The notes beneath the pieces were generated by a model. It made no database searches, was not told the DNA's origin, and saw only the letters and a list, made by a program, of their open reading frames with translations. Positions 470 to 61,965 of a stretch of DNA of 64,000 nt are shown here, in pieces (within the stretch, counting starts at the first letter, position 1; each line of letters starts with the position of its first letter). The DNA is taken from contig BJHQ01000005.1 of NCBI GenBank assembly GCA_014193115.1, positions 50,982 to 114,981 on the forward strand, given 5' to 3'. The position numbers and the translations under genes are program-made. This DNA comes from Planctomycetota bacterium (GTDB lineage: Bacteria; Planctomycetota; UBA11346).

Positions 470-877
470 ATGATCGGAATACCCATGATCCGAAAAACCT
501 TCTCGCTGTACGCGCTGATCCTGATCATCGGCCTTACCGGCTGCATGGCGCGATCCGACGACTTCGTCGCCAGCCGGCTGTACCTTGGCCTCTCGAATAA
601 AGATGGGGAGATTTCCCAGGAGGATATCAGGGTTTTCACCGACCTTGAAGTGACGCCACGGTTCCCCGATGGCCTGACGATCTACCAGACCGAAGGCCGA
701 TGGCGGTCGAAAGATGGCACGATCGGCAAAGAGCGTTCCGTGGTCATCGAGATCATCCACCACGGCACCGCCGAGGATCACGCCCGCATCGAGCAGATCA
801 TCGACCGCTACAAGGCCCGTTTCCGCCAGGAATCCGTGCTGCTGGTGGTGACCCGGCCGACGGTCGAGTTCCGTTGA
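470..877 (+). CDS. DUF3574-family lipoprotein
   Basis: Signal peptide with lipobox LTGC. Conserved DUF3574-like segment YLGLS..GEISQEDIRVFTDLEVTPRFPDGLTIYQTEGRWRS...VVIEIIHHGTAEDHARIEQIIDRYKARFRQESVLLV. Confidence 0.6.
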   Translation: MIGIPMIRKTFSLYALILIIGLTGCMARSDDFVASRLYLGLSNKDGEISQEDIRVFTDLEVTPRFPDGLTIYQTEGRWRSKDGTIGKERSVVIEIIHHGTAEDHARIEQIIDRYKARFRQESVLLVVTRPTVEFR

Positions 878-1410
878 ACGTTCCGCCCGCCACCGGCGAC
901 CGCCGCTTTCAGCCGTATTATTGCGAGGAGAACATCTGGCATCTCGCCGCCGATCCGGCGCTGGGTGAGGGTGAGCGGGCAGCGTTGGTGATCAGTGGAA
1001 CCGGCGGGACCGTCGCGTTCTGGGAGCAACGTGCCGGGCCGGAGAACGGTCCGATCCTGTGGGATTACCACGTCGTGTTGCTGGCCAGCGGTCCGGCGTG
1101 GACCATTTGGGATTTTGATTGCCGCCGTGGCTGTCCGCTGCCTGCGGCGGCTTGGCTGGCAGCCTGTTTTCCATGCCCGGAACGGATCCGGTTGCGGTTT
1201 CAACCCAGATTCGCCTGGTTTTCAGCGGAGGACTGGCGAAACCGATTCAGCAGCGACCGTGCCCACATGCGCGATGCCGCTGGCGGTTGGCTGCAACCAC
1301 CGCCACCCTGGCCGGCAATCCAGGCAGGGGATCTGACACTGGACCTGGCCATCGCAGCAGCCCGCCAAGGATCCGACCTGCGCGGTCTTTCAGAACGCCT
1401 GCGAGTTTGA
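874..1410 (+). CDS. Protein N-terminal glutamine amidohydrolase homolog (Ntaq1/WDYHV1, Nt_Gln_amidase family); probable TTG start
   Basis: YYCEENIWHL matches eukaryotic CYCEENIWKL and GPILWDYHVVLL matches GPVIWDYHVVLL. SDRAHMRDAAGGWLQPPPPWP matches [21 protein letters not shown]. The Cys-His-Asp triad positions are conserved. Confidence 0.7.
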   Translation: MNVPPATGDRRFQPYYCEENIWHLAADPALGEGERAALVISGTGGTVAFWEQRAGPENGPILWDYHVVLLASGPAWTIWDFDCRRGCPLPAAAWLAACFPCPERIRLRFQPRFAWFSAEDWRNRFSSDRAHMRDAAGGWLQPPPPWPAIQAGDLTLDLAIAAARQGSDLRGLSERLRV

Positions 1411-1722: not shown

Positions 1723-3524
1723 GTGCTTGCCGAGCCGCTTCCTGGGTTGAAGAACAGCGTCGCCCGCCCGAGTCGGCTCCGGATCGTGGATCTGCTGATG
1801 ATTCTGGGGATCATCGGTGTGGTGGTCGTTGCCATGTCCAGTCCTGGACATCCGGGCGGTGGTCCGGTCCAGCGCCAGGTCGCCATCGATCTGTCCTTCG
1901 CGGCGCTGCCCGGATACACCCTGGCATCGCTCCTGCGCGGCATGGCCGCCTATGCCATTTCGCTGGTTTTCACCTTGCTGGTCGGCTATTGGGCGGCGAA
2001 GCACGTAGCGTCCTCGCGGGTGCTGCTGCCGCTGCTCGACCTGTTGCAGAGCATCCCGGTGCTCGGATTCATGCCGGTGCTGGTGATCGGGTTGATCACG
2101 CTTTTCCCAGGATCGGACACCGGTCTCGAACTGGCGGCGATCCTGATGATCTTCACCGGGCAGGTGTGGAACATGACGTTCAGCTTCCACCAGAGCCTGA
2201 CTGCATTGCCCAGGGATCAGGTCGAAGCGGCGGAAGCCTTCCGCTTCGGCTGGTGGCGGAAGCTGCGTTGCCTGGAGCTGCCCTTCGCCACCACTGGCCT
2301 GGTCTGGAACAGCATGATGAGCATGGCCGGCGGCTGGTTCTTCCTGATGATCAGCGAATCATTTCGGCTCGGCGATCAGGACTTCAGGCTGCCTGGCATC
2401 GGGTCCTACATGAGCGTTGCCATGGAACGCGGTGATTGGACGGCGATGGTCGCCGGAGCGGCTGCCATGATCGTGATGATCGTGGTGCTCGACCAGCTGC
2501 TGTGGCGGCCGCTGGTGGTGTGGGCGGAACGGTTCCGGAGCGAGGAGTCATCGAGCGTCGTGGCGCAGCGATCGTGGGTCCTCGATCTGCTTCGGCGCTC
2601 GCGTCTCATCACCAGCATCCGCCATCTGCTGGCTCCGCGGAATCCGCAGGTTCCTGAGCGCAGCGGCCGGCCCGCTCTGCCGGTTCAGCCCACTGCGGCA
2701 CCCCAGCCTCGCTTCGGCCTGGCGGCCGTTCCGCCCGGACTAGCTGAGCGCATCGGCCAGTGGTTGGCCTGGGCCGGACTGGTGGTGCTGGTCGCCGCTC
2801 TGGTCTGGGGTTCTTGGGGTCTGATTGGACTGCTGGTGCAGGTCCCATGGAGCGATCCCGGCGAACGGCCAGAGGTCACTGGCTGGTCGGAGATCCTCGG
2901 CGGGACCGGCCTGACCGCACTGCGTGTCCTCGGCACCGTCGTCTTGGGCACGCTCTGGGCCCTGCCGGCCTGGCCATCGGCCGGTCGCCGCGCTGGTCGC
3001 AGTTCCTGCAGCCGGTGGTGCAGGTCGCCGCGTCTTTCCCCGCGCCGATGTTGTTCCCGCTCTGCCTGCTCGCATTCAGGGCCATCGGCCTGCCCCTCGG
3101 GGTCGGGTCGATGCTGCTCATGCTGATGGGCACCCAGTGGTACATCCTGTTCAATGTCATTGCCGGATCCCAGGGCATCCCATCGGATCTGCGGGAATCG
3201 GCCGCATCCTTCCGGTTCAGCCGGTGGCGGCGCTTCTGGACCTTGGAGGTCCCCGCGGTGTTCCCGAACCTGGTTACCGGCTGGGTCACCGCCGCCGGCG
3301 GTGCGTGGAACGCCTCGATCGTCGCTGAATACCTGACCTGGCACGGCGTGGTCACGTCGACGGTGGGCATCGGATCGACCATCAGCCAGGCGACCGCGCA
3401 TGGCGACCATCCCGGGCTGGCTGCCGCAGTGACCTGCATGGCGGTGGTGGTGGTTGCCATCAACAACACCTTGTGGCATCGCCTGTCCGCCCTCGCCAGC
3501 AACAGCTTTTCCCTGAGCAAATGA
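1723..3524 (+). CDS. Fused tandem ABC permease (NitT/TauT family, two BPD_transp_1 domains), interrupted by an apparent -1 frameshift near 2960-2970
   Basis: Two EAA loops: EAAEAFRFGWWRKLRCLELPFA and LRESAASFRFSRWRRFWTLEVPAVFP. Frame 1 reads ...VLGTLWALPA and frame 0 continues GLAIGRSPRWSQFLQPVVQVAASFPAPMLFPL, a typical permease segment. One missing base in ccggcc joins them. Confidence 0.7.
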
Positions 3525-3525
3525 G

Positions 3526-5319
3526 GTGACCGTGGCGATTCCCGATTCGGGCCAGAACCTGTGCGAGGTGGTCGGCGTCTCCCACGAGTTCCGGCAACCC
3601 AATGGCAGCCCGCTCACGGTGCTGCGCGACATCACCCTCGGGATTCGTCCGCGCGAGGTCATCGCCCTGCTCGGCCCGTCGGGCTGCGGCAAATCGACCC
3701 TGCTGCGGATCCTCGCCGGGCTGATCCAGCCGACCCAGGGAACCGTGCTCTATCGCGGAGCTCCCTTTCCCGGGATCAACCCCGGGATGGCGCTAGTCTT
3801 CCAGAGTTTCGCGTTGTTCCCGTGGTTGACGGTGGCTGAGAACATCCGCACGGTCCTGGAGGCTGCCGGCCTGACGCCGGGCGACTGCGCGGAACGGGCG
3901 GCCCATGCGATCAAGCAGGTCGGTCTGATCGGGTTTTCCGGCGCCTATCCCCGGGAACTTTCCGGCGGGATGAAGCAACGGGTGGGCGTCGCCCGGGCCA
4001 TCGCCCTGGATCCGGAAATCCTGTTCCTGGACGAGCCGTTCTGCCATGTCGACGCCCTGACCGCTGAAGGGCTGCGGGCCGAGGTCCTCGATCTGTGGGC
4101 GGCGCCCGGCGGCAATCCGTCTTCGATCCTGGTGGTCAGCCACGACATCGCCGAGGTCGTGCAGATGGCCGACCGCATCGTGCTGCTTGGGGCCAATCCT
4201 GGCCAGGTCCGGCAGATCGTGGCCAATCCCCTGCCCAGGCCACGGGATCTGCGCTCGGCTGCCGCTCAGCAGCTGATCGATCGCATGCATGACCTGATCA
4301 CCGGTCATGAACTGCCCGACCAGCAGCCCGACCAGACCGTGCTGGCGGCGAAGCCTGACCGCTTGGCGTCCCTGCCCTCTGTCCGCGCCAACCAGGTGAT
4401 GGGTCTGCTGGAGATGCTCGACTCGCGGGGTGGTACCGAGGATCTGTTCCGCTTGATCAAGGACACCGGCCACGAGTTCGGATCCTTGATCCAGGTGGTG
4501 AAGGCGGCGGAGCTGCTCGGCTGCGTCACCACTCCGAAGCGCCAGGTGGTGCTGAACGATGACGGCCGGAACCTGGTCCGCGCCGACCTGCCGCATCGGC
4601 CTGCGTTGTGGCGTGCCTGCCTCGAAAAGGTGGCCATCATCAACCAGATGGTCGAATTGGTGCGGCAACGCGGAGCAGTAGGCCTGAGCCGAGAGGTGCT
4701 GGTCGAAGCGCTGATCCTGGCCCTGCCGGGCGAGGACTATGACCAGCAGTTCGCCACCTTGATCGCCTGGTGCCGGATCGGCGAGCTGCTGAATTATGAG
4801 AGGAAAAACGGTGTCGTCTCGATCGCCACACCGACACGCCACATGCAGATTCCCCGGATCGACCTCGCCCCGTACCTGGATCCGCGGCGGATCCTGCTGA
4901 TGGAAGGCCAGCCAGCCAAGGCCGATGTGCTCGTTCGCCTGGCCGGTCTGTTCGCCACTTCGCCGGCGGTCGGCGATGGGCCAGCCTTCTCTGCCGCAGT
5001 CATGTCCCGCGAGGCCCTGGCCAATACCGGTGCCGGCCACCGCGTGGCGCTGCCCCACGCCCAGCTCGATTCGATCAGCGAGGTCGTGGCCGCCATCGCG
5101 GTGATCCGCGCCGGATGCGATTTCGCTGCAGCCGACGGCCAGACCGTGCAGGTCGTGGCAATGATCGCCGCACCGACCCGGGATCGGCCACGCTATTTGA
5201 AATTGCTGTCGGCGATCGCTGCCAGGCTCAGCCAGGAGGAGGTGCGTGAGCGGATCGTGCAGGCCAAGCATCCGGATCAGGTGATCGCGGCGATGGTTGA
5301 TCACGCAGTCCCTGGGTGA
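3526..5319 (+). CDS. ABC transporter ATP-binding protein (NitT/TauT-type) with a C-terminal AAA-associated-like middle domain and a PTS EIIA-2 (IIA-Ntr-like) domain
   Basis: GTG start with GAGG RBS. Walker A GPSGCGKST, signature LSGGMKQRV, Walker B ILFLDEP. C-terminal GHRVALPHAQLDS...VQVVAMIAAPTRDRPRYLKLLSAIAARL resembles PTS_EIIA_2 and retains the PH histidine. Confidence 0.75.
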   Translation: MTVAIPDSGQNLCEVVGVSHEFRQPNGSPLTVLRDITLGIRPREVIALLGPSGCGKSTLLRILAGLIQPTQGTVLYRGAPFPGINPGMALVFQSFALFPWLTVAENIRTVLEAAGLTPGDCAERAAHAIKQVGLIGFSGAYPRELSGGMKQRVGVARAIALDPEILFLDEPFCHVDALTAEGLRAEVLDLWAAPGGNPSSILVVSHDIAEVVQMADRIVLLGANPGQVRQIVANPLPRPRDLRSAAAQQLIDRMHDLITGHELPDQQPDQTVLAAKPDRLASLPSVRANQVMGLLEMLDSRGGTEDLFRLIKDTGHEFGSLIQVVKAAELLGCVTTPKRQVVLNDDGRNLVRADLPHRPALWRACLEKVAIINQMVELVRQRGAVGLSREVLVEALILALPGEDYDQQFATLIAWCRIGELLNYERKNGVVSIATPTRHMQIPRIDLAPYLDPRRILLMEGQPAKADVLVRLAGLFATSPAVGDGPAFSAAVMSREALANTGAGHRVALPHAQLDSISEVVAAIAVIRAGCDFAAADGQTVQVVAMIAAPTRDRPRYLKLLSAIAARLSQEEVRERIVQAKHPDQVIAAMVDHAVPG

Positions 5320-5420: not shown

Positions 5421-6800
5421 TTGCCTATCGCCAACGCCGTGGACCAGAACACGCCGATTCCTTGCGGGCCGCCAGGTCTCGACCAGCTGCTGGCGCGGCT
5501 GGGATCGCAGCCGCAGGAGCAGGACTGGGCCGAACTCGTCCGGTGCATGGCCAAGCCGGTGCACACGGTGGCCTTTCGGATCTGCGGCGATGCGAGCTTG
5601 GCGGAGGATGTCTCCCAGGAGACCTTCCTGGCGGTGGCCCGGGCCCTGCCCCGCTACCGCAGCCAGGGCGATCTCCAGGCCAGAGCCTGGATCATGCGCA
5701 TCGCCGCCAATCGGGCGATCTCCATCACCGGGCGGCAGCCGCGGCATCGGCGCATCTTCACTGACGATCTCGCAGCGGCCGGTCCTGACGCGCCGTCAGG
5801 GGAGCTGCTCGACGCGGTGCGCAGCGAGATCTGCGACCTGCCAGACCGGTACCGGCTGCCTATCGTCCTGCGTTTCCTCGACGGCAGGAATTACGGAGAG
5901 ATCGCCAGCGTCCTGACCTGGACCGAGGCGCGGGCGCGAAAAGCCGTGGAACGCGGCTTGGACCTGTTGCGCAGCCGGCTGGCGCGCCGGGGCGTCCCGG
6001 CGTCACTGGCGCTGTGCGCGGCGTGGTGCAGCCAAGCAGGCGCGAGCGAGCCTCCGACGCCCCTGGCTTTGACCGGCGCCCTCGCCCGCCGGCCGGAGGT
6101 CACCGCCTGGCCGTTGACCAGCTCAGTCTTTGGCGCAGTCATCGGCTCGGCCATCGTCGCCGTCCTGGCGACGACGGTGGCGATCATCACGACCAGCAAT
6201 CCCAGCGCGGCGCCAAGCTCCACCACGGTAGGCACCCCGGCCCTCGAACGCTTTATCGCGGCGTTCCGGGCTGATCATCCTGCGACGCGGCGGCGCGACA
6301 CCCTGGAGCGGTTTGAGGCTGGAACTTGGCAGATGGAGGGTCCATGGCGAACGCTTGGCGATGGGACAGCCGCCATCGATCTGCCCGCGAGCAAGGATTG
6401 GACCGAGGCTCGGCTGGTCCTCGACCTCCCGCTCGACCTGGAACACGGCAACGCTCAATTGCTGGCGATCCGATGCGACCAAGCGGTTGAGGATGGTCGA
6501 TTCGCCATTGGGCTAGCCGGATTCGTCGCAAACAAGCAGGTGTTCGACTACCAGGTGGGCCGGGGCGATCGCCAAGCCGCCGAGTCGTTCTCTCGTGTTG
6601 CCGGAAAACTGGCGATGGCGATCCGGATCGACCGGCAAGGAGCGAGGCTCCTGGTGGATGAACGGAGCGATCTGCCCACCCGCAGTCTCGCCGAGCTTGG
6701 GGTATCTGCCGATCGCATCCGCCTGGGCGTGGTGGTTGCCGCCCGTGGCGCCGCCGTCGCCGGGCACATTCAGGTGGTGCAGATCCTGACCGCGCCGTAA
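5421..6800 (+). CDS. ECF (sigma-70 family) sigma factor fused to a C-terminal transmembrane helix and a ~230-aa extracytoplasmic domain
   Basis: Sigma region 2 (ETFLAVARALPRYRSQGDLQARAWIMRIAANRAIS) and region 4 HTH (YGEIASVLTWTEARARKAVERGLDLL). A TM helix VFGAVIGSAIVAVLATTVAIITT follows. The ORF runs a further ~230 aa with no stop. Confidence 0.65.
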   Translation: MPIANAVDQNTPIPCGPPGLDQLLARLGSQPQEQDWAELVRCMAKPVHTVAFRICGDASLAEDVSQETFLAVARALPRYRSQGDLQARAWIMRIAANRAISITGRQPRHRRIFTDDLAAAGPDAPSGELLDAVRSEICDLPDRYRLPIVLRFLDGRNYGEIASVLTWTEARARKAVERGLDLLRSRLARRGVPASLALCAAWCSQAGASEPPTPLALTGALARRPEVTAWPLTSSVFGAVIGSAIVAVLATTVAIITTSNPSAAPSSTTVGTPALERFIAAFRADHPATRRRDTLERFEAGTWQMEGPWRTLGDGTAAIDLPASKDWTEARLVLDLPLDLEHGNAQLLAIRCDQAVEDGRFAIGLAGFVANKQVFDYQVGRGDRQAAESFSRVAGKLAMAIRIDRQGARLLVDERSDLPTRSLAELGVSADRIRLGVVVAARGAAVAGHIQVVQILTAP

Positions 6801-7055: not shown

Positions 7056-10000
7056 ATGGAGCTCCCCATGCGACTGAGCCGTTTTCCGGTTTGGATCTAC
7101 CTCGTATTTGCCCTGGCCCTGATGGCGGCGATCCCTGCGGTGGAGACCGTCCCCTTTGGTACGGGCCGACTGATCGGCGACGTCGGAGTCGACGGCGTCC
7201 GCCTCGACTGGAACCTCGCGGCGGAAGGGGGCTATCTGGTCGAACGGCGCTCGGATGGCCGGTTCGTGGAGGTTGCTCGGCTTCCCGCCGGTGCCACCGG
7301 AATGACCGATCCGGTTCGCTTCGGGCAGTTCCGCTGGCGGGTCACAGCACTCGATCGCCGTGGTCGGCCAGAGTCGCGATCGGCCGAGCTGGTGCTGGCT
7401 GTGGAGGTGGTGCAGCGGGATGCAGGCGGAACCGTGCTGCGCTACGGCGATACGCCCAGATCAGATCTGGTTGGCGCCACTGCGTCGCCGCTGGCCGCTG
7501 CGGGGCTCACCGACCCGGCCGTTGCTCAAGCCAATGCCGTCACTTTGAGCGGCGATTACCGCATCGACGCCCTGCTCGGCGATGCCCTGCAACCTGGATT
7601 TACGCCGGTGTCCGATCTGAAATTCGCCTTCTCCACCGCCCCCGGCACCGTCCCCAGCGAAGGGATCAAGGCGAATTACCGCCTGATCTTCGCACGGTTG
7701 GCCCAGATCATCCCAGTCACTTGCACCGAGGTCGCCACCGGCGGCAACATCCTCATCAAACTCGCCCCGGTCGGCTATGGGATGGCAGGCCCCGGCCTGG
7801 TCATGCTCAACGCGAGCTACGACCGCACCGGCGACACCAATGGCTTTCGCAATCCGCCAGGATCCCACGGCTTCCAGGCCCTGGTCCATGAACTCGGGCA
7901 CGCCCTTGGGCTCAAGCATCCCTTCGACGGCAACATCCACCTTCCTCCGGCCGAGGATACCCAGGCGCACACGGTGATGACCTACAATTTCTCCGCCAAT
8001 GAACCCGGGACGTTCATGCCCTACGATATCCTGGCGCTGCAATACCTGTACGGGAGGCCGACCGCCGGGACCGGGGGCACCTATGCCTTCTCGACCCCGT
8101 GGACCTATCAGCGCAACGGGCAGACCTGGTTCGCAACGACCTGGACCACCCGCCAATGCCTCTGGGGGACCGGGGCAGACGTGCTCGATTTTTCTGGACT
8201 GGCGGCAGGGTCCTACCGGTTCGATCTCAATCCCGGAGGCCGCCTGGGAACCACCGGTGCGGTATCGGCAAGCACCTTCACCAACGGCACGGTTCTGGCC
8301 TACGGTTCATCGTTTCCGGCCATCGTCACCTCCATCGGCAATGACGAGGTGACGCTGAGCAGCCCAGCCAATCTGATCAGGGGCTATGTCGCCGGACGCA
8401 CGTGCGGGGCCGACCGCATGCTCAGCGGTCGTCCGGACGATCGCCTCGACCTGTCGGCCTTTCCCCGCAGTGCGGTGCAACGGACTCGTCAGGGCGACGA
8501 CCTGCGCCTCGACCTGCCGAGCGGGATCGGTTCGATCACCATACCCGGGTTCTATGCCGCGGGCTGGATCCAGGTGGTCTATGCCGACAGCCATCCGCCG
8601 GTGGCCTCCAGCCAGGATTTGCAGGCGATCGAGAACCTGGCGCTGCCGATCACCCTGGCCGCCAGCGATGCGGATGGAGACGCACTGGCTTGGACGGTGC
8701 AGGCGCCAGCACGGGGCCGCCTGCTCGGGACGGCGCCTTCGCTGATCTATCTGCCGCCGGCCAATTGGACTGGAACCGACACGGTCGCGTTTTTCGTGAA
8801 CGATGGCAAGGAAACGTCGAACACTGCCCAGGTGTCGATTGCCGTCCGTGCACCTGGCGTTACCCCGACCGTGGAAGCCGGACCCGACCGCTCCACCAAC
8901 CGCTTCACGCCCATCACCCTGTCCGGCACCGCCACCGACGCATCGGGTCAGGCGCTGTCGCTGACCTGGTCCCAGGACTCCGGCCCTGAAAAGACGGTGT
9001 TCACCAGCCCGGTTGGCGGGTCGGTGACCGCCGCTTTCACCGCGGTCGGCACCTACCAGCTGCGCCTGAGCGCCACCAATGGCACCGCTACTGCCAGCGA
9101 CACCACCACCGTCACCGTGGTTCCCAGCCAAAATCCCGGGGTCGTTTCGTTCACCGCCGCGACCGTTGCGGTGCGCGAAGCCTCCGGACGGGTCACGGTC
9201 ACCGTCCAACGCACTGGTGGGGATCACGGCCAAGCGTCGATCTCATGGAGGACGGTGGCGATCACGGCCACCGAAGAAGATTACATGCGCGGCGTTGGTG
9301 GCATCGTCAGCTGGAATGACCAGGATGACGAGACCCAACAGATTGACCTCTCCATCTACGACAACCTTCTCGTCGATGGTCCGCGTACCTTCCGGTTTGA
9401 ACTCTATCGGCCCACCGGCGGGGTCGTGCTCGGATCACCGGCAACCCTGCTGGCGACCATCGTCGATGATGACGGGGTCAACCGGCCGCCGACCGCCACG
9501 TCGGCGAGCGGGAGCGTGGTTCAAGACGGCTCCCTGCCCTTGGTGCTGACCGCATCCGATCCGGACAACGACCCGTTGAGCTGGACGGTTCAAGCTCCGG
9601 CCCACGGCGTCCTTGCGGGCACTGCGCCGCATCTGACGTACACCCCGGACAGTGGCTACCGCGGCACGGATGCCGTGGTCTTCAGAGTTTCCGATACCCG
9701 GGCCCAATCGCCCAGCGCGACCGTGGCCATCACCGTGCAGGCGGTGAACCGTCCGCCCAGGCCAAGCGCCGGTCCCGACCGGAAGCTGGTCCTGCCCGCC
9801 TCCATCGTCCTGGCCGGAGGCGGCTCTGATCCGGATGGGGATTCGCTGGCGTGGTCGTGGACCAAGGTCAGCGGGCCAAGCGCGCTCACCATTGCCAGCC
9901 CGACCGATCCGCAGTCGTCGGCCACATTCGCCGGCGCCGGTACCTACCGGCTCCGCCTGGCCGCCTCCGACGGCACCGCCACCGTCGCCGACGAGGTCGT

Positions 10001-13000
10001 CTTCATCACCAGGACGAACACTGCTCCAGTCGCCAATGCAGGTCCTGATCGGGTGCTGTCGAGCCCAGGAGCAGTGACAATCAACGGGGAAGGACCTGAT
10101 GCTGATGGCGATCCCGTGCAGGCGCTGTGGACCCAGGTTTCTGGTCCGGCTGCCGCGGTGATCGACCAGCCGCGTCAACTGACAACGTCCATCCGCTTTC
10201 CAGTGACCGGGATCTACCGGCTGGTGTTGACGGTGGCCGACGGCCTGGCAACGACCAGTGACGAGGTGGTGGTCTCGGTGGGGAATCCTGGCGTGGCCCT
10301 GGATACTATTGAGTCGAAGGGCAATACCTCGTTGCTGAAGCATCCCATTGACAAGAAATACTTCGCCCGACCAGGAACGGGGACGCCGGTCCAGATCAGC
10401 AATCTGGGTCAGCAGATTTACGAAGGCATATATTCCGGCTGGACCCTGCTCGCGGCAGAAAATCTCAACAGCGAAAATCGTGCGCTCTGGCGCAACGAAT
10501 CAGGCCATTACCTGCACATCTGGCATCTGAATGCAAATTGGCAATGGACTTCCTCAGAAGGGCAGTGGAACTTCGGGACGGCCGAGGCGAACGCCCTCGA
10601 GGTCGCATTCCAAATTGATGCTGACGGGAATGGGACGATCGGCGGACCAGTGAATCAAGCCCCGACGTTCACCACCCATCCGCCGAACGCCGTGGTGACC
10701 GCAGGTCAGACCGCGACGTTCACCGTCGTCGCCAGCGGTACCCCGGCGCCGACGTACCAGTGGCAATCCGCACCGGCCACGGGCGCGTTCACCAACATCA
10801 GCGGCGCGACCGCAGCGAGCTACACCACGTCGGCGACGACGCTGGCGCAGAGCGGTACCCGCTTCCAGGTCATCGCGACCAACAGCGTGAGTGCGGTGAC
10901 TTCGGCCGTGGCGACGTTGACGGTCAATCCCGCCCCGGTCGGCCCGACGTTCACCACCCATCCGGGGAACGCCGTGGTGACCGCAGGTCACACCGCGACA
11001 TTCGCCGTCGTCGCCAGTGGCACCCCGACGCCGACGTACCAGTGGCAATCCGCACCGGCCTCGGGCGCGTTCGCCAACATTAGCGGCGCGACCGCGGCGA
11101 GCTACACCACGCCGGCGACGACGCTGGCGCAGAGCGGTACCCGCTTTCAGGTCATCGCGACCAACAGCGTGAGCGCGGTAACTTCGTCGGTGGCGACGTT
11201 GACGGTCAATCCCGCCCCGGTCGGCCCGACGTTTACCACCCAACCGGTGAACGCCGCGGTGACCGCAGGTCAAACCGCGACGTTCACCGTCGTCGCCAGC
11301 GGCACCCCGGCGCCGACGTACCAGTGGCAATCCGCACCGGCCTCGGGCGCGTTCGCCAACATTAGCGGCGCGACCGCGGCGAGCTACACCACGCCGGCGA
11401 CGACCTTGGCGCAGAATGGTACCCGCTTCCAGGTCATCGCGACCAACAGCGTGAGTGCGGTGACTTCGTCGGTGGCGACGTTGACGGTCAACCCCGCCCC
11501 GGTCGGCCCGAGGTTTACCACCCAACCGGTGAACGCCGCGGTGACCGCAGGTCAGACCGCGACGTTCACCGTCGTCGCCAGCGGCACCCCGGCGCCGACG
11601 TACCAGTGGCAATCCGCACCGGCCACGGGCGCGTTCACCAACATCAGTGGCGCGACCGCGGCAAGCTACACCACGCCGGCGACGACCTTGGCGCAGAACG
11701 GTACCCGCTTCCAGGTCATCGCGACCAACAGCGTGAGCGCGGCAACTTCGTCGGTGGCGACGCTGACGGTCAATGTGACCGCGGGCGCCAATCTGGTGCT
11801 GAACTGGACCTTGGACGAGTCCAGCGGTACGGGCGCTGCCGATGCTTCCGGCCGCGGCAATACGGGTGCGGTGGGCGGCGGCGCGACCTGGGTCGCCGGC
11901 AAGGTCGGCGGGGGGCTCCAGTTCGATGGGAACAGCGGGGCCGTGGTCGCCACAAACGTAGGCGGCCTGCCAAGCGGCAATCAGCCGCACACCCTGGCGG
12001 CCTGGGTGAAAGTGACGGCCCTGCCAGCGAAACGAGCCTGGATCGCCCTGCTGGGGGACGTGGGCAGTGGTGCGCACCATTGGCTGATCAACAGCAATGG
12101 TGTTACCCAGTTCGGGGTGTGGAACGAGAACCAGGTGGCTCCGGTGCTCGGCGTCGGGACCTGGAAACACCTCGCCGTCACCTTCGATGGCGCGACCCAG
12201 ACCGGCTACGTCGATGGGGTGGCGATTGGCAGCACGGCAGCGACCTACAACCTCAAAGGCGTCTCCCTGAAGGTGGCCAGGGCGGTGGATTGGGAGAACG
12301 CATTTAACGGCCTGGTGGATGACGTCCGCGTCTACACCAGAGCCTTGACCGCCAGCGAAGTCTCGGCGCTGGCAGGCGCGACCCTCAACACCGGTCTAGT
12401 GCTCAACTGGAGACTGGACGAGACCAGCGGTGGCGTCGCAGCCGATTCTTCTGGCCGCAGCAATTCAGGGGTGGTAGGCGGAGGCGTGACCTGGACGGCC
12501 GGCAAGCTCGGTGGGGCGCTCCAGTTCGATGGAGTGAACGGCGCAGTGGCCACGACCAGCCTGGGAGGGCTGCCGACCGGCAACCAGGCGCACACCTTGG
12601 CGGCGTGGGTGAAGGTCACTGCCCTACCGGCGAACCGCGCCTGGATCGCCCTGCTCGGCGATGCGGGGGTCGGAGCGCACCACTGGTTGATCTACCGCTC
12701 CGGAGCCACGCAGTTCGGAGCGTGGAGCTCCGGCCAGGTCACGCCTGCGCTTGGCGTCGGCACCTGGAAGCACCTCGCCGTTACCTTCGATGGCACCACG
12801 TTGACCGGATACATGAATGGAGTGGCGATCGGAACCACCGCGGCGACCTTCAGTCTCAAGGGCGTATCGCTAAGCCTGGCCCGAGCCCAGGAGGGTGAAA
12901 ACGCCTTCAAAGGCCAGGTGGATGACGTCCGCGTCTACGCTCGGGCCTTGACTGCCAGCGAGATTTCCGCCCTTGCCGGAACGACTGCGCAAGCGGCCGC

Positions 13001-13145
13001 CCTCGCCTTCACCGAGCCGGTGAACGAAACGGAAACTTCCACCGGCATCGGTGGAGGCAGCAGCGGCTGCGGGCTTGGCAGTGGATTGGCCCTGATCGGC
13101 CTTGCATTCGGGATCGCCCTGGGAGGACGAAGGAGGTGGAGCTGA
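7056..13145 (+). CDS. Secreted multidomain metzincin (M10/serralysin-like) protein with cadherin/PKD/Calx-beta/Ig/LamG domains and a MYXO-CTERM-like tail
   Basis: Signal peptide. VHELGHALGLKHPFDG (HEXXHXXGXXH), Met-turn VMTYNF and YDILALQYLYG. PKD-like and Big/cadherin-like domains, a Calx-beta domain, four near-identical ~94-aa Ig repeats and two LamG-like domains. C-terminus SSGCGLGSGLALIGLAFGIALGGRRRWS. Confidence 0.8.
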   Translation: MELPMRLSRFPVWIYLVFALALMAAIPAVETVPFGTGRLIGDVGVDGVRLDWNLAAEGGYLVERRSDGRFVEVARLPAGATGMTDPVRFGQFRWRVTALDRRGRPESRSAELVLAVEVVQRDAGGTVLRYGDTPRSDLVGATASPLAAAGLTDPAVAQANAVTLSGDYRIDALLGDALQPGFTPVSDLKFAFSTAPGTVPSEGIKANYRLIFARLAQIIPVTCTEVATGGNILIKLAPVGYGMAGPGLVMLNASYDRTGDTNGFRNPPGSHGFQALVHELGHALGLKHPFDGNIHLPPAEDTQAHTVMTYNFSANEPGTFMPYDILALQYLYGRPTAGTGGTYAFSTPWTYQRNGQTWFATTWTTRQCLWGTGADVLDFSGLAAGSYRFDLNPGGRLGTTGAVSASTFTNGTVLAYGSSFPAIVTSIGNDEVTLSSPANLIRGYVAGRTCGADRMLSGRPDDRLDLSAFPRSAVQRTRQGDDLRLDLPSGIGSITIPGFYAAGWIQVVYADSHPPVASSQDLQAIENLALPITLAASDADGDALAWTVQAPARGRLLGTAPSLIYLPPANWTGTDTVAFFVNDGKETSNTAQVSIAVRAPGVTPTVEAGPDRSTNRFTPITLSGTATDASGQALSLTWSQDSGPEKTVFTSPVGGSVTAAFTAVGTYQLRLSATNGTATASDTTTVTVVPSQNPGVVSFTAATVAVREASGRVTVTVQRTGGDHGQASISWRTVAITATEEDYMRGVGGIVSWNDQDDETQQIDLSIYDNLLVDGPRTFRFELYRPTGGVVLGSPATLLATIVDDDGVNRPPTATSASGSVVQDGSLPLVLTASDPDNDPLSWTVQAPAHGVLAGTAPHLTYTPDSGYRGTDAVVFRVSDTRAQSPSATVAITVQAVNRPPRPSAGPDRKLVLPASIVLAGGGSDPDGDSLAWSWTKVSGPSALTIASPTDPQSSATFAGAGTYRLRLAASDGTATVADEVVFITRTNTAPVANAGPDRVLSSPGAVTINGEGPDADGDPVQALWTQVSGPAAAVIDQPRQLTTSIRFPVTGIYRLVLTVADGLATTSDEVVVSVGNPGVALDTIESKGNTSLLKHPIDKKYFARPGTGTPVQISNLGQQIYEGIYSGWTLLAAENLNSENRALWRNESGHYLHIWHLNANWQWTSSEGQWNFGTAEANALEVAFQIDADGNGTIGGPVNQAPTFTTHPPNAVVTAGQTATFTVVASGTPAPTYQWQSAPATGAFTNISGATAASYTTSATTLAQSGTRFQVIATNSVSAVTSAVATLTVNPAPVGPTFTTHPGNAVVTAGHTATFAVVASGTPTPTYQWQSAPASGAFANISGATAASYTTPATTLAQSGTRFQVIATNSVSAVTSSVATLTVNPAPVGPTFTTQPVNAAVTAGQTATFTVVASGTPAPTYQWQSAPASGAFANISGATAASYTTPATTLAQNGTRFQVIATNSVSAVTSSVATLTVNPAPVGPRFTTQPVNAAVTAGQTATFTVVASGTPAPTYQWQSAPATGAFTNISGATAASYTTPATTLAQNGTRFQVIATNSVSAATSSVATLTVNVTAGANLVLNWTLDESSGTGAADASGRGNTGAVGGGATWVAGKVGGGLQFDGNSGAVVATNVGGLPSGNQPHTLAAWVKVTALPAKRAWIALLGDVGSGAHHWLINSNGVTQFGVWNENQVAPVLGVGTWKHLAVTFDGATQTGYVDGVAIGSTAATYNLKGVSLKVARAVDWENAFNGLVDDVRVYTRALTASEVSALAGATLNTGLVLNWRLDETSGGVAADSSGRSNSGVVGGGVTWTAGKLGGALQFDGVNGAVATTSLGGLPTGNQAHTLAAWVKVTALPANRAWIALLGDAGVGAHHWLIYRSGATQFGAWSSGQVTPALGVGTWKHLAVTFDGTTLTGYMNGVAIGTTAATFSLKGVSLSLARAQEGENAFKGQVDDVRVYARALTASEISALAGTTAQAAALAFTEPVNETETSTGIGGGSSGCGLGSGLALIGLAFGIALGGRRRWS
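10650..11780 (+). repeat. Intragenic tandem repeat, ~282 bp x4, >90% DNA identity, encoding Ig-like domains
   Basis: PTFTT(H/Q)P.NA.VTAGQTATFTVVASGTP.PTYQWQSAPA.GAF.NISGATAASYTTPATTLAQ.GTRFQVIATNSVSAVTS.VATLTVNPAPVG is repeated four times. Unit starts are near 10662, 10941, 11226 and 11508. Confidence 0.85.
11780..12975 (+). repeat. Intragenic duplication of a ~590-bp LamG-like (Laminin_G_3) domain, two diverged copies
   Basis: LVLNW.LDE.SG...AAD.SGR.N.G.VGGG.TW.AGK.GG.LQFDG..GAV.T...GGLP.GNQ.HTLAAWVKVTALPA.RAWIALLGD.G.GAHHWLI appears twice. Confidence 0.8.
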
Positions 13146-13280: not shown

Positions 13281-16200
13281 ATGGAGCTCCCCATGCGACT
13301 GAGCCGTTTTCCGGATTGGATCTACCTCGTATTTGCCCTGGCCCTGATGGCGGTGATCCCTGCGGTGGAGACCGTCCCCTTCGGTACGGGCCGATTGATC
13401 GGTGACGTCGGAACCGACGGCGTCCGCCTCGACTGGAACTTCGCGTCGGAAGGGGGCTCCCTGGTCGAGCGGCGCTCGGATGGCCGGTTCGTCGAGGTCG
13501 CTCGGCTTCCGGCCGGTGCCACTGGAATGACCGATCCGGTTCGCTTCGGGCAGTTCCGCTGGCGGGTCACCGCCCTCGATCGCAGTGGTCGACAGATGGT
13601 GCGTTCGGCCGAACTGGTGCTGGCGGTGGAGGTGGTGCAGCAGGATGCTGGCGGAACTGTGCTGCGCTACGGAGATACGCCCCGACCAGGCCAGTTTGGT
13701 GCCGCTGCGTCGCCGCTGGCCGCTGCAGGACTCACTTCCCCGGCCGCGGCCCAAACGGATACCGTCACCATGAGCGGCGATTACCGCATCGATGCCCTGC
13801 TTGGTGATGCCCTTCAGGCCGGATTCATCCCGATCCGGACCTGGACCTACTCCTTCGCCACCGCTTCCGGCAGCGTCCCCAGTGATGCGATCAAGGCCAG
13901 TTATCGTCTGATCTTTGCAAACATGCCCCAGATCATCCCTGCCACCTTCACCGAGGTCGCCATCGGCGGCAACATTGGCATCGGACTCGGCCCAGCCGAC
14001 TATGCGATGGGCGGCGGCGGTTCGATCATCCTCAACCCAAGTTATGACCGCACCGGGGACACCAACGGCTTCCGTAATCCACCAGGTTCGCACGGCTTCC
14101 AGGCCCTGGTCCACGAACTCGGGCATGTCCTCGGACTCAAGCATCCCCATGACGGCAATATCCACCTGCCGCCTGCGGAAAATTCCCAGGCCTACACGGT
14201 GATGACCTACAATTTTTCGGCCAATGAACCGGCGACCTTCATGCCCTACGATGTCATGGCCTTGCAGTACCTGTACGGCAAGCCGGCGGTCGGCGCCGCG
14301 AGCACCTATGTCTTCTCGACCCCATGGACCTTCAGGCGCAACGGGCTGACCTGGTTCGCAACGACCCTGACCACCCGCCAGTGCATCTGGGGGACCGCTG
14401 CCGACGTGCTCGATTTTTCGGCTCTGGCGGCTGGATCCTACCGCTACGACCTCAATCCCGGAGGCCGCCTGGGAACCACCAGTGCGGTGTCGGGAACGAC
14501 CTTTTCCAGCGGCACCGTCCTGGCCCAAGATTCATCCTTCGCTTCCATCATTACCTCCATCGGCAATGACGAGGTGACGTTGAGCAGCCCAGCCAACCTG
14601 ATCAGCGGTTTTGTCTCCGGACGTTCGTGCGGAGCAGACCGCCTGCTTGGCGGCCGTCCGGACGATCGCCTCGACCTGTCGGTGTTCTCGCGCAGCGCGG
14701 TGCTGCGGACCCGTCAGGGCGACGATCTGCGCCTCGACCTGCCAGGCGGGATCGGGTCGATCACCATCGCCGGATTTTATGCCGCGGGGTGGGTCCAGGT
14801 GATTTATGCCGACAGCCATCCACCGGTGGCCTCCAGTCTGAATCTGCAGGCGGTCGAGAACCAGGCCCTGCCGATCACCCTGGTTGCCAGCGATGCGGAT
14901 GGCAATCCCTTGAGCTGGACGGTGCAGGCACCGGGACGGGGCCGCCTGATCGGGGCCGCGCCGTCGCTGATCTACCTGCCGCCAGCCAATTGGACTGGCA
15001 CCGATACTTTCACGTTTTCGGTGAATGATGGCCTGGATTCCTCCAATACTGCCCAAGTATCGATCACCGTCCTTCCGCCTGGCTCCATCCCGTCGGTGGA
15101 GGCCGGACCCGATCGCACCACCAATCGCTTCTTACCCATCGCCCTGTCCGGCACCGCCACGAACGCGTCCGGTCAGGTCCTGGCTCTGTCCTGGTCGCAG
15201 GACTCCGGCCCCGCCCAGACCGTTTTCAGCAGCCCGGCGGGCGGGTCGGCGACTGCTGCCTTCGCGGCCGTTGGCACGTACCACCTGCGCCTGACCGCCA
15301 CCAACGGCTCCGCCACCGCTAGCGACACCACCACCGTGACCGTGGTTCCCAGCTCAAATCCTGGCGTCGCCTCTTTCACCGCCGCGACCGCTGCGGTGAG
15401 CGAATCGTCCGGGCGAGTTACCGTTACCATCCAACGCACCGATGGGGATCACGGTCAGGCCTCGATCTCATGGAGAACGGTGGCGATCACCGCCACCGAA
15501 GACGATTATATCCACGGCATTGGCGGCACCGTCACATGGAATGACCAGGATGACGAGGCCCAGCAGTTCGACCTCTCCATTTACGACAACGACCTCGTCG
15601 ATGGTCCGCGTACGTTCCGGTTTGAACTCTATCGACCCACCGGCGGGGTCGTGCTCGGATCGCCGGCGATTCAGGTGGTGACCATAGTCGATGATGATGG
15701 CGTCAACCGGCCGCCGACTGCCACGTCGGCGAATGCGAGCGTACTCCAGGATGGCGTTCTATCCTTGGTGCTGACCGCCTCCGATCCAGATCATGACCCG
15801 TTGATCTGGACCGTGCGGCCGCCTGCTCATGGCGTCCTGACCGGCACCCCACCCAACCTGAGCTATGCACCTGCCCACGGATATCGCGGCACGGACGCCG
15901 TGGTCTTCTCGGTCTCCGATACCCGGGTCCAGTCGCCCAACGCGACCGTGGCCATCACCGTGCAGGCAGTGAACCATCCGCCTGTGGCGAGCGCTGGTCC
16001 CGACCGGAATCTGGTCCTGCCCGCTGCCATCGCCTTGGCTGGAGGCGGTTCAGATCCGGATGGCGATTCGCTGACCTGGTCGTGGACCAAGGTCAGCGGG
16101 CCAAGCGCGCTCACCATTGCCAATCCGACCGATCCGCGTTCCTCGGCCACGTTCGCCGCCGTCGGCACCTACCGGCTCCGCCTGACCGCCTCAGACGGCT

Positions 16201-16679
16201 CTGCCACCGCCGCCGACGAGGTCGTCATCGCCATCAGGGCCAACACCACCCCGGTCGCGAATGCGGGTCCCGATCTGGTTCTGTTGGGTCCAGGATCAGC
16301 CACGATCGGCGGGCAGGCCCCTGATGCTGATGGCGATCCGGTGCAGACTTTATGGACTCAGGTCTCCGGCCCAGTTGTCGCGGTGATCGACCAGCCGCGC
16401 CAACTGGCGACTTCCATCCGCTTCCCGGTCACCGGAATCTATCGGCTGTTGTTGACCGTGACCGACGGCCTGGCTTCGACCAGCGATGAGGTGGTCGTAT
16501 CGGTTGCCGTCCGGCGCATGATCGAGATTCGCCTGGTCCCCAATGGGGTGGATGCCGCCATCCAACTGGACGGCCGAAATCCGGATCAGGTCAGGCCTGA
16601 CGGCACTGCCCAGTTCACCACCTCGGCTTCATCCAACCACGTGGCATCCTTCCTGACGCCTCCGAGAGGAAAGAACTGA
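13281..16679 (+). CDS. Truncated paralog of the upstream metzincin protein: protease, cadherin-like, PKD and Calx-beta domains only, with no Ig/LamG region and no C-terminal tag
   Basis: About 85% aa identity to residues 1-1075 of the 7056..13145 product, including HELGHVLGLKHPHDG. Homology ends near 16497 and a unique ~60-aa tail follows. The ~75 bp upstream of the ATG are almost identical between the two genes. Confidence 0.75.
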   Translation: MELPMRLSRFPDWIYLVFALALMAVIPAVETVPFGTGRLIGDVGTDGVRLDWNFASEGGSLVERRSDGRFVEVARLPAGATGMTDPVRFGQFRWRVTALDRSGRQMVRSAELVLAVEVVQQDAGGTVLRYGDTPRPGQFGAAASPLAAAGLTSPAAAQTDTVTMSGDYRIDALLGDALQAGFIPIRTWTYSFATASGSVPSDAIKASYRLIFANMPQIIPATFTEVAIGGNIGIGLGPADYAMGGGGSIILNPSYDRTGDTNGFRNPPGSHGFQALVHELGHVLGLKHPHDGNIHLPPAENSQAYTVMTYNFSANEPATFMPYDVMALQYLYGKPAVGAASTYVFSTPWTFRRNGLTWFATTLTTRQCIWGTAADVLDFSALAAGSYRYDLNPGGRLGTTSAVSGTTFSSGTVLAQDSSFASIITSIGNDEVTLSSPANLISGFVSGRSCGADRLLGGRPDDRLDLSVFSRSAVLRTRQGDDLRLDLPGGIGSITIAGFYAAGWVQVIYADSHPPVASSLNLQAVENQALPITLVASDADGNPLSWTVQAPGRGRLIGAAPSLIYLPPANWTGTDTFTFSVNDGLDSSNTAQVSITVLPPGSIPSVEAGPDRTTNRFLPIALSGTATNASGQVLALSWSQDSGPAQTVFSSPAGGSATAAFAAVGTYHLRLTATNGSATASDTTTVTVVPSSNPGVASFTAATAAVSESSGRVTVTIQRTDGDHGQASISWRTVAITATEDDYIHGIGGTVTWNDQDDEAQQFDLSIYDNDLVDGPRTFRFELYRPTGGVVLGSPAIQVVTIVDDDGVNRPPTATSANASVLQDGVLSLVLTASDPDHDPLIWTVRPPAHGVLTGTPPNLSYAPAHGYRGTDAVVFSVSDTRVQSPNATVAITVQAVNHPPVASAGPDRNLVLPAAIALAGGGSDPDGDSLTWSWTKVSGPSALTIANPTDPRSSATFAAVGTYRLRLTASDGSATAADEVVIAIRANTTPVANAGPDLVLLGPGSATIGGQAPDADGDPVQTLWTQVSGPVVAVIDQPRQLATSIRFPVTGIYRLLLTVTDGLASTSDEVVVSVAVRRMIEIRLVPNGVDAAIQLDGRNPDQVRPDGTAQFTTSASSNHVASFLTPPRGKN

Positions 16680-38236: not shown

Positions 38237-38375
38237 CCGATCTGGTGTGCCACTCGCGACTGGCCGGTCTGAAATTGCCGCGCTACCGCGGTCGCCATCC
38301 TGGTTAGAACCGCCCAAGCGCAGAGGGCGTTCCGCTCTCGTGCCTCCCGCTGCCGACCGTTCAGGAACCGCCGCC

Positions 38376-46286: not shown

Positions 46287-47279
46287 ATGATCACATCACG
46301 CGATCTGCTTCGATTGGGATGCCTGGCGCTTGTCGCTGGCGTCCTGGTGACCGGATGCAAAGGCGGCGGGGGCGGAGGCGGAAGTGGCCCCGGTGATTCG
46401 CCAATCACTCCAGGCGGTGGCGGTGGAGGTGGTGGAGATCCAACACCCCCACCACCACCCCCGCCACCACCGCCGCCACCGCCCAGCAGCGCCTATTTGG
46501 TGCTGAACTTGTTGGATCCGTTGGCTGGGCTGGAGCAGAAAGATTCGACGTTTGATCCAAAGACGGCGACGGACAACCAGCTGGTGTTCATCAAGCTGCC
46601 TTCTGGTTCGGTGACGACCGGGTCGCCGGTGACGGAACTCGGTCACGATGCGGATGAGATCCAGTCGCCGGGGCTGGTACGTGAATTCTATTTGAGCACA
46701 TTCGAACTGAAGCAGATTCAATGGCGTTATCTGACGGACGCGTTCAATGAACCGTGGAAATCGGTCCAGCCCCGCGCGGTCGTCGGTACGGAGACATCGG
46801 TGTTCGCTGACCGTATGCCGGCGTTCGGCATCAGTTGGCAGGCGCTGAACTCGGCGGTCGATGCCCGTAACTTGGTGTTCCTGACCAATGGAGCCACCCA
46901 CCGCATCGGCATTCCGACTTCTGCCGAGTGGCAATATGCGGCTCGTTACAAATCGGTTGACAAGACCACACCGTACAGCTGGGGCACCGATGAGAGTGTC
47001 GTGGTGGTGTCCGAGTTCGCTGTGGTTCGGGAAACCGCAGGCACGGTGCGCGGACCTCGTCTGGTCGGTGGTCGCAAAGCCAACCCAGCTGGTTTGTTCG
47101 ACATGCACGGCAATGTCTGGGAATGGACGAAGACCCCGGATAGCGCCAATCTGACCTATATCCTGCAAGGTGGTTCATGGAATGATAATCTGCTCTCGGC
47201 CCGTGTCGCCAACGTGCAGCACCAATTGCCCGATGTCGGCTACGCGACCGCTGGAGTCCGACTGACCTTGATCCCGTAA
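46287..47279 (+). CDS. Lipoprotein with a Gly/Pro-rich linker and an FGE-sulfatase (SUMF1-like) domain
   Basis: Lipobox LVTGC, poly-Gly and poly-Pro linker, then GFRCARS-type family motifs: RVIRGGSW-like GGSWNDN and HGNVWEWTKTP. Confidence 0.75.
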   Translation: MITSRDLLRLGCLALVAGVLVTGCKGGGGGGGSGPGDSPITPGGGGGGGGDPTPPPPPPPPPPPPPSSAYLVLNLLDPLAGLEQKDSTFDPKTATDNQLVFIKLPSGSVTTGSPVTELGHDADEIQSPGLVREFYLSTFELKQIQWRYLTDAFNEPWKSVQPRAVVGTETSVFADRMPAFGISWQALNSAVDARNLVFLTNGATHRIGIPTSAEWQYAARYKSVDKTTPYSWGTDESVVVVSEFAVVRETAGTVRGPRLVGGRKANPAGLFDMHGNVWEWTKTPDSANLTYILQGGSWNDNLLSARVANVQHQLPDVGYATAGVRLTLIP

Positions 47280-58376: not shown

Positions 58377-58564
58377 GGATGGTCCCCAGAAATGCACGGG
58401 ATGGTAGCCTGATCAAGGCCGGGTATTTCAGGGGATTTCAATGAAAATTGCAGGAGATCGGCCGCCTCAGAAGGGATTCGGCGCTCCAGGATTGGCAGCA
58501 TAATCTTCATCGGTCCTTCATTGAAGGGGTCCATGACGTGCGCAACACCCGTCCGGAGCACCTC

Positions 58565-59539: not shown

Positions 59540-59637
59540 GGTGACGGCGTGGATCAGGACGATCTGCGCCCGGCGGAACTCTTCTTACCAACCGCCCCCG
59601 CCGCCCTGCGCGGCGGGGTCTAGCAAAGGCCCTGTCG

Positions 59638-61962: not shown

Positions 61963-61965
61963 CCC

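Follow-up and report, generated by a model that had tools for sequence, protein, structure and literature searches.

The locus analysed here raises two connected questions: Why does an ABC ATPase end in an EIIA domain of the PTS, and is the double permease encoded just before it, which is read in two different frames, still a working gene? The locus occupies positions 1723-5319 of the window, by which we mean the whole 64-kb stretch of DNA under study, and consists of two adjoining genes on the plus strand, a tandem double permease followed by the EIIA-tailed ATPase (table 1). The answer that we favor, with a probability of roughly 0.6, is that these genes represent a two-gene orphan ABC module with an EIIA switch in cis, the window copy of which has been recently pseudogenised by a 4-nt deletion.

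Table 1. Features of the permease-ATPase locus, in window coordinates.
Feature	Position	Strand	Basis
Permease whole, tandem double BPD_transp_1	1723-3524	+	two frames, 1 then 3
Permease part A, frame 1	1723..2970	+	Pfam BPD_transp_1, E 4.7e-13
First EAA-type loop, VEAAEAFRF	2221-2247	+	translation
Frame-break site (~2967-2970)	2965..2972	+	DNA and protein comparison with 7 orthologs
Permease part B, frame 3	2967..3524	+	Pfam BPD_transp_1, E 2.5e-20
Out-of-frame tail of frame 1, 52 Cys/Arg-rich residues, stop at 3126	2971..3126	+	translation
Second EAA-type loop, LRESAASFRF	3189-3218	+	translation
ABC ATPase, 597 aa, GTG start 1 nt past permease frame-3 stop	3526..5319	+	ORF
Nucleotide-binding domain (NBD)	3622..4041	+	Pfam ABC_tran, E 1.3e-32
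Tandem winged-helix module	4387..4824	+	Pfam AAA_assoc_C at 4453-4797
PtsN-type EIIA (PTS_EIIA_2)	4876..5292	+	Pfam, E 3.6e-22
Active-site stretch R495-E-x4-T-G-x-G-x-x-V-A-L-P-H511	5008..5058	+	aligned to PtsN phospho-His motif

The initial annotation had described these genes as an ABC system of NitT/TauT type devoid of a substrate-binding protein, and this description is upheld by HMMs, PDB matches, and orthologs alike. The best NCBIfam matches of the ATPase are TauB (1.9e-51) and ntrCD (1.2e-50), both of which remain under the equivalog cut-offs (172 vs 291.8). The permease has, as previously claimed, two BPD_transp_1 domains, each recognised by Pfam and each provided with an EAA loop. Part A of its gene comprises an N-terminal extension, the first BPD_transp_1 domain, a linker of ~100 aa, TM1', and most of TM2', showing 81-86% identity to the intact orthologs at loci L004 and L005, while part B supplies the remainder of TM2' and then TM3'-TM6' together with the second EAA loop. 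Those window ORFs that were scanned include no binding protein of NitT/TauT type (NMT1/SsuA/NrtA), adjacent to the module or otherwise, the sole binding protein being PstS-like (58448-59539). Equally, no binding protein was found within 8-10 kb of the orthologous genes at L006, L008, L090, L092, and L093, or in the available flank of the short contigs L004 and L005; an orphan binding protein may be encoded elsewhere in the genome.

The second BPD_transp_1 domain of the window permease is interrupted by the frame break, which falls in transmembrane helix 2 of the second permease half. Its orthologs have instead one intact ORF of 570-601 aa (L004, L005, L006/7, L008, L090/91, L092, and L093), the protein of which reads LP[V/A]G[L/I][A/V]IG at the break in 7/7 cases, where the window is 4 nt short. 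At DNA level, the site is CTGCCGGCCTGGCC in the window and CTGCCGG(T/C)NGGNCTGGC in the orthologs, a net loss of 4 nt, with the missing unit corresponding to one GGCC/CCGG (compare CCGGCCGGCCTGGCG in L093); judging from the sequence, a (GGCC)2 repeat has probably lost one of its units. The net -1 change reported by the initial annotation thus stands, whereas its explanation by one missing G does not, given the 4 nt lacking with respect to seven orthologs. The readings WALPA and GLAIG, previously assigned to the two frames, overlap by two nucleotides.

How did the break arise? The same annotation had offered three explanations, namely an error, a recent pseudogenising mutation, or slippage, of which only the second agrees with the assemblies, the orthologs, and the absence of a slippery site. 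An error of sequencing or assembly, the permease being intact in the organism, might be suspected at a site that is GC-rich and locally repetitive (CCGGCC), since MAG consensus sequences sometimes contain indels. It is nevertheless very unlikely, for three assemblies made separately from three different samples (L001-L003) agree at 100% identity over the 3.6-kb region 1723-5319, the Lake Biwa MAG data are of Illumina MiSeq type (2x300), and the deficit with respect to all seven orthologs amounts to 4 nt and not to one homopolymer base. Programmed -1 frameshifting or other recoding, by which a full-length permease would still be made, with one residue less than in the orthologs, is also very unlikely. 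The downstream frame is perfectly kept (part B has 95.7% identity to L005, with dN/dS 0.07 at dS 0.28) and the start of the ATPase adjoins the frame-3 stop, as recoding would have it; a very recent mutation, however, would leave the frame just as well kept, and the shift is absent from 7/7 orthologous permease genes, all of which are single ORFs. Moreover, the frame-1 codons at the site are TGG GCC CTG CCG GCC TGG, forming no in-frame X XXY YYZ slippery heptamer, so that tRNAs could not re-pair in the -1 frame. It is also highly improbable that the gene has become functionally split into a 467-aa protein and a separately initiated C-terminal fragment, the two assembling in the membrane. Frame 3 is indeed open from 2760, with a GTG at 2760 and an ATG at 2848, and a 137-aa ORF beginning at 3111 is among the gene-caller predictions, but the upstream starts would add an Arg-rich out-of-frame leader, the start at 3111 would leave out TM2' and TM3', the break falls within a transmembrane helix, and none of the orthologs examined is split.

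Because it is the same in three independent assemblies, while all orthologs are intact and a slippery site is missing, the permease lesion is, on comparative grounds, a genuine, recent, and lineage-specific pseudogenising deletion. The loss of 4 nt in the GGCC repeat, within TM2 of the second half of this Lake Biwa planctomycete permease, cuts the product short, so that it lacks four helices and also the second EAA coupling loop; with its permease so truncated, the window copy is a recent pseudogene. Since the permease is knocked out by this 4-base deletion, the window copy of the transporter is probably dead. The ATPase, starting just past a permease stop that would now go untranslated, is probably poorly expressed or idle, a polar effect of the deletion that we infer as probable. 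An intact minority allele may exist alongside the deletion allele. Metagenome contigs scanned for the deletion junction, allowing for 0-4 extra nt, gave no match.

The ATPase has a 100% identical counterpart among database proteins (P0001/P0121 = GDY12711.1, from LBMAG53, labelled Planctomycetota). Its NBD retains all motifs of a type I ABC importer intact, that is Walker A (3673-3699), the Q-loop, the LSGGM signature (3958-3972), the DE of Walker B, and the H-loop, and the columns of these motifs are invariant in the alignment of relatives. A structural model of the full-length protein, whose inter-domain geometry is uncertain (pTM 0.50), returned from Foldseek only matches to the NBD, with NrtD and CmpD at the top, and for this reason a separate model was made of the winged-helix module and used for its own search. 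The presence of an AAA_assoc_C domain in the middle of the protein, inferred earlier from the sequence alone, was borne out by the HMM scan (PF09821, residues 310-424, E 4.5e-14). The separate model and structure search indicate that PF09821 spans two winged helices, not one; this tandem, with a disordered linker (residues 262-276) ahead of it, resembles DNA-recognition modules such as those of FokI and MarR.

Similarly substantiated, by HMM scan, PDB matches, and orthologs, is the earlier claim that the ATPase terminates with a PTS_EIIA_2 domain retaining the phosphorylatable His. PF00359 covers residues 451-589 with 79.3 bits against a cut-off of 27, and the PtsN entries 2a0j, 3urr, 4gqx, and 1a6j of the PDB match the domain with E values from 1e-10 to 8e-8. 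The VALPHAQ motif is present, with His511 encoded at 5056-5058, and the EIIA motif [LIVM]-A-[LIVM]-P-H-[GAC] fits as V-A-L-P-H511-A, R495 being the upstream Arg. From what we take to be the longer PROSITE pattern, the window departs at one position, having A for [LIVMF]. Across 14 fused clusters, residues R, E, T, G, P, and H do not vary, and the same six match in the pairwise alignment with P0138, which is 46% identical; because of this invariance of R-E...T-G...P-H, the EIIA domain is, as far as sequence conservation can tell, under selection as a phospho-acceptor. Where EIIA(Mtl/Ntr) has its second His, most members have a Tyr.

With the catalytic Arg and His invariant in all relatives examined, control of transport by PTS phosphorylation, as proposed in the initial annotation, appears plausible. 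In the intact orthologs, the complex would have the composition (TMD-TMD)1(NBD-wH2-EIIA)2, without an operon-encoded binding protein, and the fused EIIA would most likely constitute a built-in regulatory switch. The HPr/NPr of a regulatory, transporter-less PTS would phosphorylate His511, and the phosphorylation state would then allow or block NBD closure and ATP hydrolysis. This would reproduce in cis the control of ABC systems that is exerted in trans by EIIA(Ntr) in Rhizobium and by EIIA(Glc) on MalK. Phosphorylation, its effect on transport, and the substrate are all matters of inference. Planctomycetes have a regulatory EI while PTS permeases are absent (PMC2405797), and in Rhizobium PTS(Ntr) inactivates ABC transport post-translationally (PMC3665714).

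Could the domain work without being phosphorylated? It might be a structural or a ligand- or protein-binding module like the cytoplasmic domain of Band-3, and the whole module might signal via its winged helices rather than transport. In favor of such a reading, and against the switch proposed above, genes for EI, HPr/NPr, or stand-alone PtsN are absent from the 64-kb window and from the flanking sequence available at the fused loci (at most 10 kb, with several short contigs); it gains further from the Tyr replacing the second catalytic His and from the similarity of the winged helices to the DNA-recognition modules mentioned above; a role in transport has also been doubted by Li et al. (2012; PMC3688454), who themselves questioned whether the base system transports. 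We nonetheless judge it unlikely: the strict invariance of phospho-His and Arg down to 46% identity is hard to explain without phosphotransfer, and the NBD catalytic motifs are kept together with both EAA loops, as in working importers.

Turning back to the preferred reading of an EIIA switch in cis, its distribution deserves consideration. Homologs of the ATPase having ~430 aa and no EIIA number in the thousands, and the two non-fused loci examined, e.g. in Corallococcus, likewise present the two-gene layout. EIIA-fused ATPases are very rare, forming only two clusters at 50% identity among 1.84 billion representatives, and in a tree of the NBD plus winged-helix region they constitute a single clade. 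Using the C-terminal 334 aa as protein query, metagenome contigs gave no match and the protein homolog search, its word index being swamped, gave one weak match; a contig search with the EIIA-region alignment returned, among the matches listed, only generic PtsN genes with identity of 45% or less. Our literature search found no report of an EIIA fused to an ABC ATPase. The base system, combining tandem TMDs with a PF09821 ATPase and no binding protein, is of an already known, uncharacterised type. As to the gene neighborhood, kdpDE-kdpFABC adjoins the module at L008, and this is probably a coincidence, since no other locus has such a neighbor. A DUF3574 gene lies upstream of the module in the Lake Biwa genome only, and for this reason is not considered part of it.

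In functional terms, the NBD-wH2-EIIA fusion could be taken as a "Rosetta stone", indicating that the tandem-TMD/PF09821 family comprises working, binding-protein-free ABC machines gated directly by the regulatory PTS; we advance this idea tentatively, as possible rather than probable. If it were true, the cis-fused form would offer a tractable system for studying how EIIA(Ntr) turns ABC transporters off. In Rhizobium, the shutdown of ABC transport by PTS(Ntr) is established by genetics, and we know of no study that has defined the physical contact between PTS(Ntr) and an ABC transporter there. A covalent fusion of a PtsN-like domain with an ABC ATPase, in which the phospho-acceptor residues show strict conservation, marks the ATPase subunit as a likely direct target and provides, in one polypeptide, a model for biochemistry and structural study. 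It would also give a first functional clue, regulation by the cellular C/N/K status, for a large orphan ABC family to which neither a substrate nor a role has been assigned since 2012. As for the frameshift, its only importance is as a caution: The window copy being a recent pseudogene, an intact ortholog (e.g. L005, L006, or L008) is the one to be used for experiments.

Among known systems, the closest in architecture is CLIBASIA_02420/02415 of Ca. Liberibacter asiaticus, a "Nrt/Ssu/Tau-like" orphan ABC system that was flagged in 2012 as possibly novel (Li, Cong, Kinch & Grishin 2012; PMC3688454). Both this system, with its COG4986 permease and PF09821 ATPase, and the window module have TMDs in tandem within one polypeptide, an ATPase with the PF09821 winged-helix domain behind its NBD, and no binding protein; the window differs in its frameshifted permease and in the extra C-terminal EIIA, known only from the two clusters mentioned above. 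The closest solved NBDs are those of cyanobacterial NrtBCD and CmpBCD (PDB 8wm7, 8w9m, and 9ua1; Foldseek E ~1e-23, 35% identity), in which NrtC/CmpC likewise possesses a C-terminal regulatory domain and the NrtBCD complex binds the nitrogen-status protein PII (8wm7). These transporters, however, use a periplasmic binding protein, NrtA/CmpA, their permease is formed by two separate copies of a single-domain protein instead of a tandem in one polypeptide, and the regulatory domain of NrtC/CmpC is binding-protein-like, whereas that of the window ATPase combines winged helices with EIIA. The latter belongs to the same fold family as EIIA(Ntr)/PtsN (PDB 1a6j, 2a0j, and 3urr) and has the R-E...G-x-A-x-P-H active site in common with it. 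As a free protein of ~160 aa, PtsN acts in trans on many targets, in Rhizobium controlling ATP-dependent transporters of Kdp and ABC type (PMC3665714), while the EIIA of the window is the C-terminal domain of a 597-aa protein and thereby covalently joined to one ABC ATPase. Cation/proton antiporters of the Na_H_Exchanger type (P0146, P0150, and P0249) also have PtsN-like cytoplasmic domains fused to a transport protein; they are secondary transporters with two tandem C-terminal PTS_EIIA_2 domains, unlike the ABC ATPase considered here. Finally, inducer exclusion was reportedly captured by Chen and colleagues in 2013 (PDB 4JBW), with EIIA(Glc) bound to MalK of MalFGK2. Depending on its phosphorylation state, EIIA(Glc) clamps the NBDs and regulatory domains of MalK and blocks ATP hydrolysis, yet it acts in trans, has an unrelated fold (PTS_EIIA_1), and meets a regulatory domain in MalK that is TOBE-like, so that what it shares with the window system is the principle only.

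Judging from the translation, the two open frames of the permease gene jointly encode a single protein. BPD_transp_1 is matched twice by Pfam (E 4.7e-13 in the frame-1 part and 2.5e-20 in the frame-3 part). The anatomy proposed in the initial annotation, namely a double permease followed by an ATPase carrying an EIIA-like domain, is borne out by translation and Pfam matches far beyond chance; the scan also found both of the accessory domains expected in the ATPase, AAA_assoc_C and PTS_EIIA_2 (see table).

Features of the ABC module, its junction and neighboring genes (window positions unless a residue range or another locus is named)
Feature	Position	Detail
Permease, frame 1	1723-3126	open frame (ORF listing and translation)
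Permease, frame 3	2760-3524	open frame (ORF listing and translation)
First EAA-type coupling loop	2221-2247	VEAAEAFRF
Second EAA-type coupling loop	3189-3218	LRESAASFRF
ABC ATPase, 597 aa	3526-5319	GTG start 1 nt past permease frame-3 stop
ABC_tran	residues 33-172	Pfam E 1.3e-32
AAA_assoc_C	residues 310-424	Pfam E 4.5e-14
PTS_EIIA_2	residues 451-589	Pfam E 3.6e-22
Junction DNA, ortholog L004		CTGCCGGTGGGCCTGGCG
Junction DNA, ortholog L093		GTGCCGGCCGGCCTGGCG
Junction DNA, window		CTGCCGGCCTGGCC
Small DUF3574 protein	470-877 (+)	lipoprotein-like signal (…LTGC)
N-terminal glutamine amidase ORF	700-1410 (+)	strong domain match, PF09764, E 1.3e-30; WDYHV motif
ECF-type sigma factor	5421-6800 (+)	regions 2 and 4; C-terminal extension of ~270 aa with hydrophobic segment
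Giant secreted/surface proteins	7056-13145 and 13281-16679 (+)	2029 and 1132 aa; Big_9, PKD, Calx-beta, LamG
Low-GC segment	38000-48000	GC 57-58% vs ~65% elsewhere
2668-aa ORF	38247-46253	nearly fills the low-GC segment
FGE-sulfatase-domain lipoprotein	46287-47279	follows the 2668-aa ORF
Separate ABC system	58448-63624 (+)	PstS-like binding protein (PBP_like_2, 3.4e-31), then two BPD_transp_1 permeases of unusual length (774 and 552 aa)
kdpE-kdpD-kdpCBA(F)	L008, 11771-19611	convergent with adjoining ATPase-EIIA gene
PF07077 (BPSS1818) membrane protein and TatA gene	L006, 6896-7570; L090, 11806-12486	recur beside the module

How did the permease come to be split? In the seven ortholog loci that were retrieved via the ATPase and compared for the permease (L004, L005, L006/7, L008, L090/91, L092 from Corallococcus, and L093), the gene is always a single ORF of 570-601 aa with the junction motif (T/S)LWA(L/V)P(V/A)G(L/I)(A/V)IG. 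At the DNA level the window junction is 4 nt shorter, hence the net -1 frame change. The lesion is therefore these 4 nt, and not the one missing G initially proposed, because the WALPA and GLAIG readings overlap by two nucleotides. The simplest origin would be an L093-like ancestor with (GGCC)2 that lost one unit by replication slippage. Since the break lies within TM2 of the second half, four helices and the second coupling loop are missing from the frame-1 product; past the junction this product runs into 52 Cys/Arg-rich residues before the stop at 3126.

Of the three causes initially considered, sequencing error is made very unlikely by the 100% identity of 1723-5319 across three contigs assembled separately from samples SAMD00112395, SAMD00112396, and SAMD00112397 for the Lake Biwa MAG LBMAG53, labeled Planctomycetota, and by the nature of the data: LBMAG reads are Illumina MiSeq 2x300, and a recurrent 4-nt deletion is not a known Illumina error mode. 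Programmed frameshifting is unsupported, as there is no in-frame slippery heptamer at the break and the shift is absent from all seven orthologs. The segment after the break is free of decay so far, with 95.7% identity to L005 (vs 85.6% before the break) and dN/dS of 0.07 at dS 0.28. Taken together, this evidence identifies the break, at the level of the assembled sequences, as a very recent, lineage-specific inactivating deletion, an ordinary recent pseudogenization, which is the initial option best supported.

Around the module, the DUF3574 gene occurs in the Lake Biwa genome alone; as the ortholog loci lack it, it does not belong to the module. Between it and the permease sits the N-terminal glutamine amidase ORF, where ENA has no gene call on the identical contig; its real start is probably downstream of 877. 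The sigma factor gene lies directly 5' of the 2029-aa surface protein gene; the first ~40 residues of the two giant proteins are nearly identical, which suggests that they arose by a recent duplication or have a targeting leader in common. The low-GC segment may be acquired DNA. The fused-clade loci L006 and L090 share their PF07077 and TatA neighbors in different gene order. The kdp adjacency, seen in L008 only, is notable because KdpD is regulated by PtsN in proteobacteria.

Thousands of ATPases of ~430 aa combine ABC_tran with AAA_assoc_C (7,965 matches at E<=1e-10), and in both non-fused loci examined the ATPase is paired with a tandem permease and no nearby binding protein. Li et al. 2012 (PMC3688454) already called this base system "a possible novel ABC system", with no characterization found after 2012. 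Fusion to an EIIA domain is much less common: a match spanning both the winged-helix and EIIA parts is seen in only two of 1.84 billion 50%-identity representatives, P0005 and P0138, and the window's clade comprises 14 fused clusters at 90% identity. In a NJ tree of the NBD and winged-helix parts only, these 14 form one clade with non-fused proteins as sister group, which suggests that the fusion arose once in this clade. The EIIA matches ranking next come from Na+/H+ exchangers that each carry a fused pair of EIIA_2 domains at the C terminus (P0146, P0150, P0237, and P0249), so that joining PtsN-like domains to transporters is a recurring theme. As far as could be found, no description of the EIIA-tagged ATPase exists, and it is a rare, apparently undescribed variant.

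The EIIA-like fold and phosphorylatable His recognized initially are sustained by matches to PtsN structures 2a0j, 3urr, 4gqx, and 1a6j (E 1e-10 to 8e-8), in which GQGVAIPHG aligns with GHRVALPHA of the window. No substitution of R495, E496, T, G, P, or H511 occurs in any of the 14 fused clusters or in the 46%-identical P0138. EIIA(Glc) clamps MalK, a structural precedent. In Rhizobium leguminosarum, ABC transporters are inactivated post-translationally by PTS(Ntr), presumably via non-phosphorylated EIIA(Ntr) (PMC3665714), and for Planctomycetes a regulatory EI and an absence of PTS permeases have been reported (PMC2405797). Given these precedents and the strictly conserved active site, the best-supported reading is that the EIIA domain would switch the ATPase in cis, with phosphorylation of His511 by a regulatory PTS as the readout. 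Genes for EI, HPr, or free PtsN were absent from the 64-kb window and the available fused-locus flanks, with queries for EI and HPr that recovered such genes in control loci. Alternatively, the module may have a signaling role exerted via its winged helices, with which their presence in the ATPase is compatible. For the window's own organism the question of PTS control is moot, since the permease is broken. The EIIA-tagged ATPase provides a testable hypothesis, namely that the PTS directly controls an orphan ABC family.

Every catalytic motif of the NBD is invariant in the alignment. The full-length AF2 model is confident inside domains (pLDDT 89) and not between them (pTM 0.50), with a disordered linker at residues 262-276. 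The single winged helix predicted for this ATPase type (Li et al. 2012, PMC3688454) is confirmed, and widened to two winged helices. The closest NCBIfam models are of TauB and NrtC/D type, with scores under equivalog cut-offs, and among solved structures the closest come from the cyanobacterial transporters NrtBCD and CmpBCD (subunits NrtD and CmpD), including the NrtBCD-PII complex.
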